Shown here: positions 9,659-56,100 of the stretch, piece after piece | Numbering within the stretch: position 1 is the first letter of the stretch | Layout: the number at the start of each line of letters is the position of its first letter | Origin: Rozella allomycis CSF55 | Taxonomy: Eukaryota | DNA: 56,100 nt | Direction of reading: 5' to 3' | Assembly (NCBI GenBank): GCA_000442015.1 | Contig: KE560559.1 | Coordinates: 1-56,100, forward strand | Notes under the pieces: generated by a model | Seen by the model: the letters and a program-made list of their open reading frames with translations, nothing else | What the model was told of the DNA's origin: nothing | The model's database searches: none | Made by a program: the position numbers and the translations under genes

Positions 9659-9702
9659 ACAATTGTTATTGTTGGCCGTTTTACGATTTCAGATTTTTCT
9701 AA

Positions 9703-11479
9703 ATGGTTTTAGAAATCATTGATAAACTTATTACAGATGATAAACATGAAAGATTATATCCTTGGTAAGCAACTTTATTCTGTTGAAAATGGCCTTGGTC
9801 CTTGTCTAAAGTTTTAGAAACTTGTAGAGATTTTCCAAGCGGAGTCACACCTGCTATTTTAGCTTCTGAACTTGATCTAAAAGTAATTAATGTTATAAAA
9901 GATGAATCAAGTGGAAAAAGAATCACAGCTCTTCCGTTGAAGATAAGCCAGTTGAATTTACTATAAGAAAGACGTCCTTTCTTCAAAATACCAAAATTTG
10001 TAAATATTTGGACTTCATAACATAAAGTAATATGGGATTTTGATGAGCAAGACCAGCAAATGCTTGTTCATCAAAGGTTTTGCGCCTTTTGGTTTGAAAA
10101 TAAGGGGTTCTTTCAAAACAAGCGTAAAATACTAATGTTTCCATCAAAATTGCTCAAAAAGAAGAATGTTAATTTGTTTTCACCATCAGAAAACTTAATA
10201 TTCCTCCTCGAGCAATTAGGCGAAATGGATACACAATGGGTACGTTTCGTCTTCAAGCCAATTGAGCTACCGTCATCCGGAAATGCAAACATTATAATCC
10301 AAATTTTGAGTAAATCTAAAGAAGAAAACGTTGACGCTCTGAGAAAGAAAAGAATCATATTTGGACTTTATAACGATAACATCATATTGACGATAAATTT
10401 CTGGAACGATGATATTAAATCCACACATCTTTTCAAGAGAAATGAAACACTTGCTATTTATTCTGCATATTGCACCCTGGATTCAAATGGATCACCGATG
10501 GTCGATGTTACACCAATGAGCACCCTTTTTAAAATCGTAGACAACATAAAAGTTGAAAAATTTGACTCTTTTAACAAAAATATGAAGTATAATCCTGAAA
10601 GAACATTTATTTCGAATATTGAAGATTCAATGTCACATCTCTACCTTTTAGGGCAAATTACCGCGATATCGCCAGACATGCCAGTCATAGAAAACAATGA
10701 AGTCATTCATCGTAGAGTCTTGAGAATAATGGACACCTCAGGTAATATTATCTCTATTGATATTTTTTAGGCCAATGTGATGTAACTGTCTGGAGAAATT
10801 TAGCAAACAAAGTTGTTAACACATGCAACGTTGGTCACCTTGTTTTCCTTAATTCTGTAGAAACCCAAAAGTCCGATAATGGGGTACTTTATATTAATGT
10901 AATAGATTCTCCCAATTCTGCCATATATAATTGTAAGGCAAGTAGATTATGACTCTATTTAGTGTCAAAACTAGACGCTTTCCTGACATCCCCAAGTTTA
11001 AATTCGATCTCAACAAAATTGTCACAAGAAATCTGTAAAGTCCAATTGGCACAGATTAAATTTAAAAGCGTTAATTTAGAGTTGTCTACTGTAATATTTC
11101 GACACGACAATTGTCCACAAATATTTCAGCGCATGGCAAATCAGGAATGTGGGTTTTGCAGAAAAAAATTCATTGTTGCAAATATGAAATCATACTTTAA
11201 CATAAATGTCACCTTCACTTTCATGGGTGATGTGCATTCTGGAATTCTGGAGGATGATCCAGCCAGGGTATACAGATTTTCATTACCAAAATAAGAAAAT
11301 TCTAGATTGTCATCCAGCAGACTTTCATTACGAAACGTTAAAGGAGAAACAAAATGTTGTAGAGGAAAAAGTACTATTTAGAGAATATTTGAGTACTTTA
11401 ATAGTAAAATTTTGAAAAAAGTTGATAAAGGTGAATCCATCGAATTTACAGTCTTTTATCATTTCAAATATAAACTAAT
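9703..11479 (+). CDS. Multi-OB-fold protein of the fission-yeast Cdc24/plant CDC24_OB family (not the Cdc42 GEF); first intron GT-TG
   Basis: PWPWSLSKVLETCRDFPSGVTPAILASEL; LVHQRF; PSENLIFLL; OB strands LYLLGQI...LRIMDTSG.CDVTVW; C-terminal HxxC...CGFC zinc motif. Confidence 0.7.
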
Positions 11480-23454: not shown

Positions 23455-24459
23455 ATGAAAAACCTTCCCGATTCATTCTATAAACATTTCCCAATATCAA
23501 ACGAACAATGGAAAAACGCATGGTCATATTCGTTGCAGAAACTTGCAGAAAATTCAACGGTTGTTGAAAGATCAATAACAGAGTTGGCATTGCCATTTGC
23601 TGAAACTCGAGCCTTCAAGAAATGGAAATCTTCGGGTCAACAAATCTCAGATCTTTGCACATGTATTTGGAATCAAACAGAAATGATAAATATTTACCAT
23701 TCCATTCCCCAACCCCCGGTTTACGATGGTTCAGATAGATACATTAATTTAGCACAAGATTATATAAAATCTATTAAGTAATATATAATAACAAGATTTA
23801 AAGATAGATACAATTTTACTGGAATCCAAATCTATACAATTAACAAGAAAAGACCATTTTCTTATTTAATGAAAACTGCAAAGGAAATGATAAAATATGG
23901 AATGCCAATTAAATGTCTCGAGGCTTGTGTTCTAGCAATGTACTAAATCTATTCATCTGATAACAGGTATTTAACTTGCGCGATGAAAAATACAGTTCGG
24001 TTTCCTTTAAGTTTTAAAACTAGAGTGGGAAACAATACGTAGTTGTAAGAGGAATCGGACAGAGTTATGAAGGCACATTGTCTTGGTTATATTTTCGAAT
24101 GGAAAATATGGCGCCATGGGATTAAGTCGAAAGGGAGATTTGATGGATAAACCACTTAAATACACAGTAACAAATTAACCGTTTGGTATGAAAGAGCCTC
24201 ACCAATTTAATAAAAGAATTCGTGAGATGCTATGAATCAAGTACATGATGCCATTTTTGCAACATTTAGATGGGCATGAAGTTCAGAGGTTGAAATTGGG
24301 AGCGCCGGTTCCTCACGACATTTTTGCAAACGAGATATTAAAATGGAATGTAATATTTATAGCATTTCTTTAAAGCAATGCCTAATTTATTTGGACAAGA
24401 CTGGAACATCGTTGCAAGAACAAATTAGAATTTATGAAGAACAATTTATTTTATGCTGA
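23455..24459 (+). CDS. VASH1: Vasohibin (tubulin tyrosine carboxypeptidase); 6 introns, one junction ambiguous
   Basis: YNFTG...KKRP...AKEM...PIKCLEA...YLT...RFPLSFK...HIVL...YGAMGLSR..DLMDKPL; catalytic Cys and His present. Confidence 0.9.
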
Positions 24460-44442: not shown

Positions 44443-45660
44443 TTATGTTATTAGTCCATTGGCTTGCAAATTTATATTTCTTATAGCTGTAATCGTAGAC
44501 TGAATCACATTCTTCGTCTGCTTTACATCTGTAGCATGTGTTATATGCGGAAAAACATCGAGCTCTGCATCAATTTTAGATACAAGGTCAAGAAACAACT
44601 TTTTCACAAATTTTATCCCGTCACTATAATCCAACGTCTTTCCTTTCCATCCATTTACACACAATTACCTTGATACTCTGGAAAATGTTTCTCCAATGGA
44701 ACAACTTGAATCTTCAACTTGAATATATCACTCTTGTTCAAAAACAAAATTAACGGCTTCCTTTTTAAGAATGGATTGTCTAAAACTTCCTTCAAAATCT
44801 CTAAATCTCTTTTTATCGCATTCTTTGTGACTTAAAACTGGAACGTACTCGCGGCAGTTCATCTTCCTCGGAAACCTCCTGGTCATACGTGCTGATCGCT
44901 GAAATAAATGTGATAATAAAAACCTTGTCAAAATGATGAATCCATTTCTTTCTCTCAGATTTTTGTCCTCCGACATCAATCACCTTTAATTTCATATCTG
45001 CTGTATTCAATGTAAATTCTTGAACACCAGATGTTGGCTTGCGAACATTGACCCAGTCATTAATCGTCGGAACAAATGATTTCTGGAATATCAGCATTGG
45101 CATCCTACTAACCATACTATAATATTCACAAAGTCAACTTACTAGACTGCATAGTCAGGTAATACTAGACTGGTGGTTGAATAAAATTCTTTAATGAATT
45201 TATCATTTAAAAATAATTGTACAATTTCTCCAAACCTTGACAACTTGTCTTGATCTAGTTGACTTAGATTTTCCATCGTTTGGATGCTAATAGCTTCTAT
45301 GGTCAAAGCCTAAATAGTCGGAAATAATAAGCAAGAATACCATATTAGATCCAATTTTATCTACCAATTGCTTATTTTTTAACACTGCGTCGGCAATTGG
45401 TTGAACTGATGACAGTACGTTTTCATACATTGTCCATTTTAGTTCTTTTATTTCTTCATCAGTCAATTGATGATCAGAAAAAAGTTTAATTTGTTTCATA
45501 AATGTGGATTTTCCTGCATTTTGAGCACCTAGAATATCTAGTATGAATTATTACCAAGAAGTATTGTCGATATTGTTTGTTCAAAATTCTTTTTGTCCTT
45601 TTTGATAATACTATCAATTTCTCTTGAATGCCTGATCTCCTCTGATGCAATGTTTCCCAT
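44443..45660 (-). CDS. Divergent heterotrimeric G-protein alpha subunit; 5 introns
   Basis: MGNIAS myristoylation motif; GAQNAGKST; RKPTSGV; DVGGQKSERKKWIHHF; LFLNKSD; THATD. Confidence 0.92.
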
Positions 45661-48217: not shown

Positions 48218-48493
48218 TTAGCGCCCAACTTCACTCTTCCCTTCAACCTTTAAGTTGTTCAAGCGTTCTTTATTGCGTCTTCCTAATACTCTCATTGTAT
48301 TGGTTTTCTCAGATTCAGTCATGTTATCCCAATTTGTAATTCTACTCATAGATCCATCCTCGTTGATAACAAGCGGTCCTAACGCATCTAGTCGAATATT
48401 CGATCCCACCTCGTGGTTATTATCAACATCTGAAGGCGCTGGTAGTCCTAATAAAGTGCCAGTTTCTGAAATATTCGATTGTGTTCCTGACAT
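48218..48493 (-). CDS. Conserved small hypothetical protein
   Basis: LDALGPLVINEDGSMSRITNWDNMTESEK...RVLGRRNKER, a motif I recall from an uncharacterised fungal/protist family. Confidence 0.75.
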   Translation of the reverse strand: MSGTQSNISETGTLLGLPAPSDVDNNHEVGSNIRLDALGPLVINEDGSMSRITNWDNMTESEKTNTMRVLGRRNKERLNNLKVEGKSEVGR

Positions 48494-48547
48494 GTGGCTT
48501 TGAACTTTGTAAAGGTTAAGAAAGAAACACTATAATTGTGATGAAAT

Positions 48548-49444
48548 TTATTTTTTCTGTGGGCTTAAAATACCTTCTAGTTGAGTCTATATTAACTTTG
48601 AAAAGGAAATACCTTCAATTGCAAGTTTGTCTTTTTCAAAAAGGCGATTTCTTCAGCATGCTTTCGTTCATCCATTGCGCGGCGTTCATTTTCTCTCTTT
48701 TCAATAGCTTCGCATTTAGCCTTCAATTCTGAGACTGAATGTTCAAGATTTTTCTTTTCTTCTTCTAATTGTTTGAGCTATTTATTTTTTTATTGTGCTG
48801 ATTACTTGGCTTTCCATTTCAGATTTTCCTTGTTCTGCTTGCAGCGCTTTTCTCATTCCAAAAGCAACACTTGACTCGTAAAGGGTTTGATAAGCGGCCA
48901 GAGTCATTCTGATTTCATCGCGAACTCTTAATAAAAGTAAACCACGTTCCTGGCATGTTATAGTTACTTGACGAATTAGTTCATCTTATTTAATTGTTTT
49001 AATCTTTGTACCAAAGCATTGGGAATACAATTCTCTTCTAATCGGACAAATTCCAGTCTCTCTTGCTTGCCTCTTTTGAAGCATATGATCTAATTGTTCC
49101 CATTATGTATTAACAGTGTAATTACTTGTAAATTGATTACATCTAATCTTGTGGCTGGAGTAGAGCTAACTTGTTGAACCCAGAACTGACCATTTTCATC
49201 CCATTCCCTATTTAATTTGAAGTGTAATGTTTTACTTTGGGGGTAGAATAGAATTTAGGATATCTTCTGTGGTAGCTGTTGGTTGTTGTAAATTTTTTAG
49301 TTTTTCATCCTTTGTTGGCGACGAGGGAGGCAATTGAGACTTTTTTGGTTCTGTTTGTTTTTGTGGTAATTTAGAGTTATCTGTGGCTTTTGAAACGAGT
49401 ACGGGATTATCATATTTGATCAATGATTGACCGATATGTAACAT
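48548..49444 (-). CDS. DNALI1: Axonemal inner-arm dynein light chain p28; 5 introns, one GT-GG
   Basis: SLIKYDNPVLVS; EDILNSILPP; VSSTPATRLDV; RQARETGICPIRRELYSQCFDELIRQVT; YESSVAFGMRKAL. Confidence 0.96.
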
Positions 49445-49617: not shown

Positions 49618-52600
49618 TTAATATTTATTTTCAGTGCTACTTTTATATTTTATTTTCATTCTTGCTATTGATTGAGGATCAATGCTTCCACGAATGCCTA
49701 ACAAGGCTTTCCCAACAGCTTGAGTGATACCAATTGCCGGTTTAAGGACGACCACTGGAAGAGATTTTAAAACAAGTTTCAATGAAACCTTAAATGCGTA
49801 TTTTTTTAATACTTTACTGAATCAGTCTGAGGCACAGCCAAGACAATGCTGGATGCCTCTTTCATTCCTTTGGAAAGAGACTTGTAAGCTTGAATGAAGC
49901 CTTTTGAAAATAAGATAATAATTTACCTTGAAGAGCGTTTTGTGGTGGTGAAGCGAATTTACTTTGCCGCTGCAAGTCGTGGCCCGTTAGAATTCTTTCA
50001 ATTTGATCCAAAAACGTTTCAGTAGAGACAACCATTGAAGTTCCAAGTTTTAAAACTTCATTTGAAGCTGATTTTGTAAACGAAGATAACCCCTTTTTAA
50101 TAGCTTTTAATAGATCGCCGTGTTCTTTGAAGGATTCAACTGGCAAAATGATTAAATCAACGAGACCCTTGCCTATATTTATAGCTGATTTAAAAGGATA
50201 AATAGCCTGAAGAATTCCAGTGATTTCACATTTGTTAATTTCATCCATCCAAGCGTCCATTAAAGTTTCTACTAAATTTTGAATCCCATGAATGCCACTA
50301 ATTCTTAATTTGCCAAGATTAATTCCAGCATTTTCCAATCTTAACAAATTAAATAATTCTGAAAGATTTCCTTCCTTTAAGGATGCAATGTCTATTCCTT
50401 TGGGTTTATAATCAACAGTTAAAGAAATTGGACTAATTTCAACAAGATCTACAATTTATAATAAAATAAATTTAATACTAAAATAAATTCCATTTCCAGA
50501 TGATTCAGAGCTACTTGATGAATAACTGAAAAAGTTTATTAAGAATTTTAGAGTATCCTGGTCCAAATGAACAATCAAAGGGTTTATTTCACACTTTTAA
50601 TAATTAATTTGTATTTTACTTTCAAATTCTTGTCAAAATTACCAAATTCCTGAATGGTAATGTTTAACAGGGGTTGATCATGCATTTCAGAAAACAATAA
50701 AGTTTTCCATAGAGAAGAAGGGATGTTGTCTAAAATTTCCATATTTTTAATTTTGATCGATAGAATAGAATTTGGAGAATTTGTAGATTGTAGAGCCCCC
50801 AAAGAGAATGATGTTTGGTTGATGGATAATCCAAAAATATCAAAAATGACTGAGCCTAAAGAAGGATTGAATGTTTCCTTGACAGAAGAATGTTTTAGTG
50901 GAATTGCTTCAGCGGGAGAAATGAAGCAAATGTCGTCTGATTCATTTTCCATTGTTGGATTGAGGGTTGCAGTAGATTGTAATTCTTCCAACAAGACAAA
51001 ACTATTCTGCCAATCAAACCCCTGTCTTAATTCAATTTTAACATTTAAATCTTCAGCCAACAAAATCTTTAAAGGAATTTCACAAAATAGATTATCCGAA
51101 AAGTGGGATTCATTCAAATCCAAATTTAGATTTTCACTACCATTAGTGACAGAGTTTTTAATATTAGAGTTTTCAACATTATAGTCTTCTTTGCAGACTT
51201 TATTAAATGAATTTTTTAATTCCCAATCAAATTCATTAATGGAATTAACAAACCTTGTTTCGTCCAACTCTAAATTACTTAATGTTAAATCCTTTGGCTC
51301 TTCAACTTTGAAAGGTTCCAAATTATCCAACACGCCCATCAAAGGATAAGATTTACTCATTTCAATTTGTAATTTTTCATTTATTTCACCTTTATATTCA
51401 TAATTATTTATTTCTTCTTTATTTCCATCGCTATTTTTATCTTTTTTCAAAATAACTTCAGTGGCTATGGAAATCAAAGAATGTAGACTGTCGGCACAAA
51501 CCGAAATTTCCAGATTGTGATTTGAAATTTTAATCATCGATTTTTCAACAAGAAAAGACATATAATCATCTCTTGCAACTTTAATGTAACCCATTTCCTA
51601 TAAATATTACAAAATTTGTCTATTTACTTGTAGCCCATCAATGGTTGACAAACCTGAATCAGATTCAAGCAAGAATTGTTTATCATCAATGAGAAATAAA
51701 TTAAAATTTTGAAATACAATACTTTTATTACTTTTATTAATTGAAATCTTAAAGTTTTAATTGAAATAATTTACATTTGATAAATCAAAATAGAAAAGTA
51801 AATTTCCAAAACAAGAATCATATTCGATTGTAAAATCATTCAATTGTAAACGCAATGGGAATTCAAATCCAAACGATCCATTTTCAGTCAATTTATATAC
51901 AAAGTGACTGTTTGTCAATGAAATATAAAATTCATTATTTATAAATGTAAAAATTAGTCGATCTTTAGAATATCTTTGTCTCTTTGATTGAAATTGGCTT
52001 TCTCTCAACACAACTTGATTTTGCTTTTCTATAACTATCTTGGAACTCACAAATTTTAATGAATTTTCTTTCAAAGAATATCCAATAATTGAATCTTTTA
52101 AATAAACATCAAACTCATTTGTTGCAAAATGAACTATAATTTGAATTTCTGAAATTTACTATTTTGACATAGAAAGGAAAACACAACTGCAATCGAATCA
52201 ACATCAGATCCAACATCAGAAGCAACTTCAATATCAAAAGAAATATTATTTTGCATTCCTTCTATGTCGAATACTTTAAAATCAAAAAATATGTTGGGAA
52301 TGTCAATTTGTATGAAATATTTCTGTATCAATGTTAAATATTCAATACCGAATTGTTAGACAAACTTTTCAATTCTCTAATCAAATCTTCTCTAGAATTA
52401 ATTTCTCTTTTGAAATTTATTTTATTAGAATTATTTAAACTGAAACTGATAAAGGATTTGGCGCCATTTGTTGAAAATGAATTACAGAAAATTCTCTCAT
52501 CAATTGAAGCCCTCAAACTATCAAATGAAAAAACAAGCGGCAAATTCAACGAAATGCTCACATTGCCAAAAAATAATTGATATCTTTGAAATAAAATTAT

Positions 52601-54145: not shown

Positions 54146-54499
54146 TTAATTTTGGGTTGGTACTTTGAGAGCAATGTAATTCTTTATTGAATCGTTTAAT
54201 TCCTTTGATTCCTCAAATCCAGGCGTGTCAACAATATTCAATGCTTTTCTTTCATATGAACAAGGGTATATTGTTAAATCTGCCTCTCTCAAATTTTCAC
54301 TCAATCTCTCATATTTTTTATCTTTGGAATTTAAATCGAATAGACTATGAAGAACTTTTACGATGGTTGACTTTCCTGCACAATTGTGCCCGAACATAAG
54401 AACATTAAAAGGGCGATTACAGGCCTCATTTTTAACAGGTATAGCAACAAAAAAGTGAACCAAGCAACAAAAAATCCCTGCAAGAAGAATTTTTTTCAT
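54146..54499 (-). CDS. Signal-peptide-bearing TRAFAC GTPase fragment (G1 and G3 only); possibly truncated or a pseudogene
   Basis: MKKILLAGIFCCLVHFFVA; NVLMFGHNCAGKST; LNIVDTPGF; no G4 motif found before the ATG2 start. Confidence 0.6.
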   Translation of the reverse strand: MKKILLAGIFCCLVHFFVAIPVKNEACNRPFNVLMFGHNCAGKSTIVKVLHSLFDLNSKDKKYERLSENLREADLTIYPCSYERKALNIVDTPGFEESKELNDSIKNYIALKVPTQN

Positions 54500-54637
54500 C
54501 TTTTTGCCAGGGTATGGAATTATTGATATTAGATATTCATGAAATCATCAACTATTTTCCCATTAAGATTTTAGCATTTCTCACTTAATGAAATATCGAA
54601 TAATAAAGTATGTGCCAAAATCTTATATCGAAATTTC

Positions 54638-55306
54638 ATGCTGAAATTCGCCAATATCAACTCTGTTGCATTTTTACTTTGCGATATCCAAGAGAAATTT
54701 AGACCAGCTATATATGATTTTAATAGCGTCGTGCGTGTTGCTGATAGAATGGTATTTGTAAACGCGAAATATTTCTAGGTCAAAGCTGCTTCAATTTTAA
54801 AGCGTCCATTAATTGTTACTGAACAAGTAATTTCACATCTTTCTTTAGAACAGTATCCAAAAGGTTTAGGCTCAACAGTAAAAGAAATTGACATCAAGTC
54901 CGCAAAACTATTTTCCAAAACCAAATTCTCGATGCTCACAGATGACGTGAAGAAGGAAATAGCTAATATTAACGATATTTGCCTATTTGGCATCGAGGTA
55001 ATTATTTGCTTTATGATTAAATGTCACATGTTTGTGTTTACCAAACGGCATTTGATTTATTGAATGAGGGAAAAAATGTCTTTTTATTAGCAGATGGCAT
55101 AAGTTCCAGATATAAAGAGGAAAAATATTTGGCCTTGTCAGTAACAGAGAGACTTAAAGCAACACTAGCAATTACAACATGCAGGGGCCCAAGTAATTTC
55201 AAGCGAATGCCTTTTATTCCAATTGTTAAAGGGTTCGGACCATCCAAACTTTAAGGATATATCAAATTTAGTTAAGAGCACTGACCCCATTAAAATAAAC
55301 TCTTGA
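54638..55306 (+). CDS. Isochorismatase-domain protein (ISOC1/2-like); 4 introns, one GT-TG
   Basis: LCDIQEKFRPAI; VTEQYPKGLGST; KTKFSM; FGIESHVCVYQT; DGISSR; SECLLFQL..HPNFK. Confidence 0.93.
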
Positions 55307-55368
55307 TGTTTTGATTAATCAAAGTTTGGTGAATTTATATACCCGCTTAGCAACGTTCCCCACAAACA

Positions 55369-56100
<732 letters not shown>

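Follow-up and report, generated by a model that had tools for sequence, protein, structure and literature searches.

The 56,100-nucleotide (nt) stretch analysed here, hereafter the window, is taken from the fungal parasite Rozella allomycis CSF55 (contig KE560559.1, positions 1 to 56,100, forward strand). Close to its end lies a gene of the isochorismatase family, of the ISOC2/MAR1 type, that is made up of five exons separated by four introns. Three of these introns are canonical GT..AG introns, whereas the third would be removed at a TG acceptor. The terminal AG of introns is among the most constant signals of eukaryotic gene expression, and the present analysis, which follows up a preliminary description made from the letters of the window, is centred on this third (focal) intron. 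The layout of the gene is given below, where P0001 designates the public protein model of the locus and P0002 an insect ISOC2 protein.

54638..54751, + strand: first exon of the gene (isochorismatase family, ISOC2/MAR1 type), starting with ATG and carrying the LLCDIQ Asp motif; same as the N-terminus of P0001
54752..54778, + strand: intron 1, 27 nt, GT..AG; also spliced out in P0001
54779..54826, + strand: exon 2, from the reading frames and P0001
54827..54853, + strand: intron 2, 27 nt, GT..AG; TEQ and YPKGLG become adjacent on its removal, as they are in P0001 and P0002
54854..54997, + strand: exon 3 (YPKGLG...KTKFSM...LFGIE), aligned end to end by phmmer against PDB
54998..55023, + strand: intron 3 (focal), 26 nt, GT..TG, with a non-AG acceptor; from homologues in which the exons on either side are contiguous, and from DNA contigs
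55024..55140, + strand: exon 4, beginning with SHVCV (Cys motif); PF00857, with PDB alignments from its first residue
55024..55068, + strand: 15-codon segment SHVCVYQTAFDLLNE (45 nt), intronic in the public model; missing from P0001, aligning with solved homologues
55141..55168, + strand: intron 4, 28 nt, GT..AG; left unspliced in P0001
55169..55306, + strand: exon 5 with a TGA stop, from the reading frames and the alignment of the 186-residue model

The third intron of the isochorismatase-family gene

Exon 4 by itself matches PF00857 (E 2.1e-07, 31.6 bits against a Pfam cut-off of 27) and exon 3 matches MAR1/ISOC structures (phmmer against PDB), while exons 1, 3 and 5, each scanned singly against Pfam, gave no family. 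The catalytic triad of the isochorismatase family consists of Asp, Lys and Cys, and the corresponding motifs LLCDIQ, KTKFSM and SHVCV are all found in the model that lacks the 26-nt intron, the last of them being missing from P0001. The Cys of exon 4 aligns, in a weak match (E 0.45), on residue 133 of the pyrazinamidase 1ilw_A, which we take to be the nucleophile Cys of the family.

The focal intron, gtaattatttgctttatgattaaatg, is 26 nt long, with GT at its start and TG at its end. The frame upstream of it reads ...LFGIE, and SHVCVYQT... downstream lies in another frame; when the intron is left unspliced, translation continues as VIICFMIKCHMFVFTKRHLIY* and reaches a stop after 21 codons. According to the preliminary description, removal of these 26 nt restores GIESHVCV, and solved structures bear this out. 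The last residue of exon 3 (ending in GIE) corresponds to residue 110 of 2b34_A, 116 of 1x9g_A and 108 of 1xn4_A in the phmmer alignments; the first residue of exon 4 (beginning with SHVCV) corresponds to residue 111 of 2b34_A, 128 of 8rl0_A and 120 of 8rkz_G, and its second residue to 118 of 1x9g_A. Because exons 3 and 4 are residue-contiguous in these homologues, positions 54998-55023, i.e., exactly 26 nt, must be missing from a functional mRNA.

The preliminary description further stated that about 70 nt follow the donor without any AG, and that use of the first one would delete the catalytic Cys motif; both statements hold. The first AG past the donor gives a 71-nt intron (54998-55068), and later ones give introns of 93, 96, 106 nt and so on. 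The 71-nt option stays in frame (71-26 = 45) at the cost of the 15 codons SHVCVYQTAFDLLNE, which are conserved relative to solved homologues and include the Cys of SHVCV; P0001 lacks them.

In other respects the focal intron resembles a U2-type GT-AG intron: its donor, its length and the restoration of both frame and homology conform to this type, and only the 3' AG does not. The donor (GAG at the end of exon 3, followed by GTAATTAT) stands at the 84th percentile among the 153 donors of the confident intron set defined below, GC content is 19%, against a mean of 27% for the introns of the genome, and the gene finder described below still selects the TG intron when non-AG ends are charged a penalty of -7.

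Two other ways of describing the junction were considered and rejected. The sole alternative cut that would give the same mRNA lies one base to the left, and the resulting GG..AT intron is no better than GT..TG. U12-type introns carry the extended donor RTATCCTT and a matching branch-site box; the donor GTAATTAT does not match the former, and no TCCTTAAC-like box is present within the 26 nt.

Base 55022, at which the preliminary description had considered that an A might be found in raw reads, is T in the contigs of three DNA runs (here X1, X5 and X6), with no variant at this position. A contig of X1 covers 54157-55838 (word depth about 479), two contigs of X5, with a word depth of about 317, cover 54157-55004 and 54975-55838, and a contig of X6, a run from another sample and year, covers 54722-55052 (depth 3.6), in each case with 0 differences from the window. 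X1 and X5 may have been the source of the assembly, so that they are not independent of the window.

Elsewhere in the window, allelic variants supported by about a third of the depth were reported. In both X1 and X5, variants of this depth and small indels cluster at 44829-44855, 49782-49833, 52209-52269 and 55788-55808, which suggests that a second haplotype or strain was sequenced along with the first. At 45119-45131, every covering contig of X1, X5 and a further run, X7, carries four substitutions relative to the window (A>C, A>T, T>C and A>T), all of which fall within a 26-nt intron (45117-45142, - strand) whose AG is intact and whose -3 position is altered; assembly and reads seem to carry different alleles there. 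A loose end of X5 holds an adapter fragment that we take to be Illumina-like.

The public model P0001 (Rozella allomycis CSF55), a protein of 163 residues named isochorismatase hydrolase, is 100% identical to exon 3 and takes the 71-nt GT-AG option at the focal intron, thereby losing 15 conserved residues, the nucleophile Cys among them. It also retains the canonical 28-nt intron 4, which leads to an unrelated 34-residue tail at its end. When compared with the insect ISOC2 protein P0002, the 186-residue model that lacks the 26-nt intron scores 429, with 88 of 176 aligned positions identical, against a score of 263 and 62 of 121 aligned positions for P0001. P0001 is probably wrong at the focal intron.

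Intron population of the window and other non-AG ends

The introns of the window were first collected as GTA..AG segments linking pairs of open frames, each 40 codons long or more. This yielded 75 candidates, 56 of which are 26-31 nt long; the other 19 are shorter or longer, and several of them evidently represent sub-donors of genuine introns or lie antisense. A small dynamic-programming gene finder was trained on the 56 candidates of 26-31 nt. Restricted to GT-AG introns, it predicted 183 introns, among which 172 measure 26-34 nt, and the predicted introns of 24-36 nt that belong to gene models scoring at least 35 make up the confident set of 153 introns to which the counts below refer.

Lengths in this set are narrowly distributed (26 nt, 29 introns; 27 nt, 49; 28 nt, 23; 29 nt, 29; 30 nt, 17; 31 nt, 5; 34 nt, 1): all 153 fall within 26-34 nt, and 152 within 26-31 nt. 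As for the 11 longer predictions among the 183, the one of 122 nt is the focal gene forced onto an AG, that of 70 nt is the dynein light chain case presented below, and those of 69 and 130 nt fuse neighbouring genes, the remaining seven (41, 65, 74, 88, 108, 127 and 137 nt) being located at gene ends or in a weak, low-scoring model. The longest verified intron of the window, 34 nt at 24040-24073 with the donor GTAGTT, belongs to a gene at 23455-24459 (+ strand) that is, judging by eye and with no search run, presumably vasohibin-like.

The introns of the window are rich in A/T, with a mean GC of 27%, and begin with a strong GTA donor whose consensus is G T A(88%) A(61%). Neither a polypyrimidine tract nor a positional branch-site motif was seen in the 153 confident introns, in which the branch-site motif TNAY shows no favoured distance from the 3' end. 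Internal AGs are bypassed in 69 of the 153; measured from the 5' end, they end at every distance between 4 and 25 nt, and none ends at 26 nt or beyond, a partly circular count given that the gene finder favours lengths of 26-31 nt. A G at position -3 of the acceptor is rare (7/153). Choice of the 3' site therefore looks distance-based, with use of an AG at 26-31 nt from the donor.

When non-AG ends were allowed at a penalty of -7, the gene finder predicted 179 introns, 6 of which have non-AG ends. Two of these are supported by homology, namely the focal intron and one in a dynein gene. Three others were set aside because they lie within antisense or start-codon extensions, and a GT..GG candidate at 24045-24073 was rejected since the canonical 34-nt intron 24040-24073 links the two conserved parts of the vasohibin-like gene. 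A run with a penalty of -4 was not used, its 44 non-AG introns out of 214 corresponding mostly to spurious extensions and gene fusions. In addition to the focal intron, two non-AG introns were retained, the second of them as probable:

49100..49125, - strand: second non-AG intron, 26 nt, GT..GG, in an axonemal dynein light chain (p28/DNALI1) gene; from contiguity in solved homologues
9765..9791, + strand: third non-AG intron (probable), 27 nt, GT..TG, first intron of a Cdc24 gene

In the dynein light chain gene, the exon upstream of the GT..GG intron ends at residue 87 of 7ju4_v and 103 of 8j07_e0, and the downstream exon begins at residues 88 and 104, respectively; the DNA of 49100-49125 is identical in contigs of X1, X5 and X7. 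The resulting 253-residue model is identical to the chytrid orthologue P0005 at 184 of 241 aligned positions (76%). The public model of this gene, P0004 (331 residues), takes an AG located 27 nt further on and thereby drops 9 residues that are kept almost unchanged in P0005, and it fuses a downstream gene (48218-48504) through a 69-nt 'intron'. Reading through at 48505-48586 (- strand) gives GILSPQKK*, which stops like the C-terminus of the chytrid orthologue. P0004 is probably wrong at the dynein GT..GG intron.

The Cdc24 case has less homology behind it than the focal and dynein cases. Exon 2 (9793-9882) matches CDC24_OB1 (profile positions 35-63 of 125, E 9.2e-08), its frame opens just 2 codons upstream, and this short stretch contains neither an ATG nor an AG. 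An ATG exon (9703-9764) is followed by a good donor, and removal of 9765-9791 joins it in frame to exon 2; exon 1 (20 residues) and exon 3 (29 residues), each searched alone against Pfam, gave no match. The preliminary description had likened the acceptor context of the focal intron to that of this gene, and indeed the 27-nt segment ends in ...gaaaatg. Antisense to the 5' exons of Cdc24, a 122-codon open frame (9699-10067, - strand) without a Pfam match led the gene finder to extend the Vps41 gene wrongly; this frame is probably non-coding.

The three non-AG introns share several features. They end in TG, GG and TG, all of the B-G class in which the final G is kept, they are 26-27 nt long, their donors are strong (71st-84th percentile), and their ends are one mutational step away from ..TAG or ..AAG. 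In each of the three genes, the remaining exons and introns are intact. With 3 cases for about 175 introns in the 56-kb window, non-AG ends would account for approximately 1-2% of introns.

Proposed removal at TG and its alternatives

We consider it likely that the focal intron is a genuine spliceosomal intron removed at TG, that its 3' site is set mainly by distance, and that UG or GG can replace AG. The TG acceptor advanced in the preliminary description is supported by the DNA, by the length of the intron, by homology and by the two further non-AG introns.

Several points weigh against this reading. The evidence for TG splicing comes here from DNA, and the joining of the mRNA at TG, the efficiency of this joining and a relaxed proofreading of the second step are all features that we infer from it. 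A minor AG allele may exist at the focal acceptor, as the DNA was checked in the form of run contigs, and contigs drop rare variants. When metagenomes were scanned with the reading frame of exons 2-3, 80 loci matched, of which the best reaches 55% identity and none is close to Rozella. The AG that is used is the first one at least 26 nt from the donor in 153 of the 153 confident introns, although this count is partly circular, the length model of the gene finder favouring 26-31 nt; strict scanning therefore predicts the in-frame 71-nt intron in the focal gene. Lastly, human TG sites need an AG within 28 nt, and human AG>TG mutants activate other AGs, as described in the part of the source available to us (Szafranski et al., 2007; PMC2374985), and the next AG lies 45 nt downstream of the Rozella focal TG.

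The last two points are also those on which a first alternative is built, namely that an AG is obligatory and the first one is used, giving the 71-nt GT-AG intron 54998-55068 and an in-frame product without SHVCVYQTAFDLLNE that would be catalytically dead or misfolded. Preservation of the frame speaks for this possibility, which is the one adopted in P0001. However, 71 nt is twice the length of the longest confident intron, none of the 153 exceeding 34 nt, the acceptor would be GAG, with the G at -3 that is rare in the set, and 15 codons conserved in solved homologues would be deleted. Applied to the other two genes, the same rule would break the frame, the first AG at 26 nt or beyond giving introns of 36 nt in the dynein gene and 47 nt in Cdc24. 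As to the public models, they are demonstrably unreliable, P0001 keeping the canonical intron 4 and P0004 fusing its neighbour past a stop that matches the orthologue. We regard this explanation as unlikely.

A second alternative, which we hold to be just as improbable, is that the acceptor is dead: a recent AG-to-TG mutation would have left the intron retained or mis-spliced, and the gene would be, in CSF55, a null allele or a pseudogene of recent origin. TG is indeed one step away from typical acceptors (..TAG minus A, or ..AAG by A>T), the parasite Rozella is reduced, and genes of the ISOC family are not known to be essential. Yet none of the five exons is damaged, introns 1, 2 and 4 are canonical, each of the three motif residues is kept, and the focal sequence is identical across runs from different samples and years. 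Moreover, the same lesion, and no other, is seen in two more genes within 56 kb, the replication gene Cdc24 and the dynein light chain gene, the latter with 76% identity to its chytrid orthologue; three null hits, all at -2, all sparing the final G and with no other frameshift or stop in these genes, are unlikely to have arisen by chance. Because of the length of 26-27 nt, the strong donors, the conserved final G and the intact genes, tolerance of non-AG ends is favoured over three coincidental null mutations.

Finally, a sequence artefact, in which the true AG would occupy 55022-55023 and the T would be an assembly or sequencing error, is very improbable, for even though two of the three covering runs are possibly the assembly source, X1, X5 and X6 all agree with T and an A/T difference is not an error of the homopolymer-length type.

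Splicing at TG, which we thus prefer, could proceed as follows. Removal of the focal intron at its TG end would give a 186-residue protein with intact Asp, Lys and Cys motifs. The 3' splice site would be fixed mainly by distance, at 26-31 nt from a strong GTA donor, such a ruler replacing both a branch-site or polypyrimidine signal and AG scanning. Exon ligation would tolerate a pyrimidine or a G at -2 provided that the last base of the intron is a G (UG, GG), and about 1-2% of introns may have drifted from AG to UG or GG ends with their function kept. In the ligation-stage spliceosome, the last G of the intron pairs with its first G, and the contacts of the -2 base are less essential.

A broader proposition, for and against which we see about equal weight, is that R. 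allomycis as such uses a 26-31-nt ruler and constitutively ligates exons at UG or GG as well as at AG; that about 1-2% of its introns are non-AG introns with no AG nearby; that proofreading by Prp18, Slu7 or U2AF35 has been lost or altered; and that many public Rozella gene models carry, as a consequence, false deletions or truncations in which conserved residues are missing.

If true, this would mean that a wild organism productively uses UG and GG ends in near-minimal introns, and it would serve as a natural experiment in whether the second catalytic step is guided to its site by a ruler or by the sequence. The matter has a practical side, too. Both public models that were checked probably err at non-AG introns, P0001 being without its nucleophile Cys and P0004 without 9 conserved residues and fused to its neighbour; 'losses' read from the Rozella proteome may therefore mislead comparative studies. 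In a literature search, which did not cover the original genome paper, no description of non-AG splicing in Rozella came up. Rozella gene models were curated with unpublished RNA-seq in a 2026 study, according to the part of it at hand (PMC13393502).

Comparison with known splicing systems

The focal intron may be compared with the ordinary GT-AG introns of Rozella itself. It has the same GTA donor consensus, falls in the same range of 26-31 nt, is likewise A/T-rich and leads to a premature stop when retained; it differs by its acceptor, TG. Narrow length distributions near the physical minimum are also characteristic of other genomes with ultra-short introns, such as those of Paramecium, Stentor, chlorarachniophyte nucleomorphs and dicyemids. 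To our knowledge, these genomes are described as keeping AG acceptors, exceptions not having been searched for. Rozella would be like them in its intron lengths and, insofar as their acceptors are AG, unlike them in its non-AG ends.

TG 3' splice sites are known in humans, where the available portion of the study reports them in 36 genes, as alternatives only and never as the sole site, and always with an AG no more than 28 nt away, about 0.01% of the candidate TGs being in use (Szafranski et al., 2007; PMC2374985). Going by the same portion, the human and Rozella sites are alike in that both are GT..TG introns of the major spliceosome with a context resembling that of normal acceptors and with the final G kept. 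They differ in that the human TG has an AG partner at 28 nt or less and serves as an alternative, whereas no AG is present within 45 nt of the Rozella TG, which would itself be productive and probably the main site. Frequencies are also different, at least as judged from the window and from that part of the human study, with 3 of about 175 introns, or approximately 1-2%, in Rozella against about 0.01% of candidate TGs in humans. Although the chemistry is similar, the Rozella TG falls outside the human tandem TG-AG class because there is no AG within 28 nt.

Another parallel is offered by budding yeast lacking Prp18 (prp18-delta), in which UG, GG and CG ('BG') 3' sites near the branch point are activated, Prp18p and Slu7p being dispensable when the distance from branch point to 3' site is short; the 3' base of 'BG' sites is thought to dock on the first base of the intron (PMC10711555, in the part of the article accessible to us). 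In Rozella, a 26-nt intron leaves little room between branch point and 3' site, and no branch-site motif is positionally enriched in the 153 confident introns. The dinucleotide class (UG, GG) is the same in both systems; as far as the accessible part of the yeast work goes, however, 'BG' use there is a mutant phenotype that yields minor aberrant isoforms, whereas its use in Rozella would be natural and productive. TG and GG acceptors are thus already known from human and prp18-delta yeast, and what would be new in Rozella, if true and on the portions of these reports available, is their productive use by a wild organism with no AG nearby.
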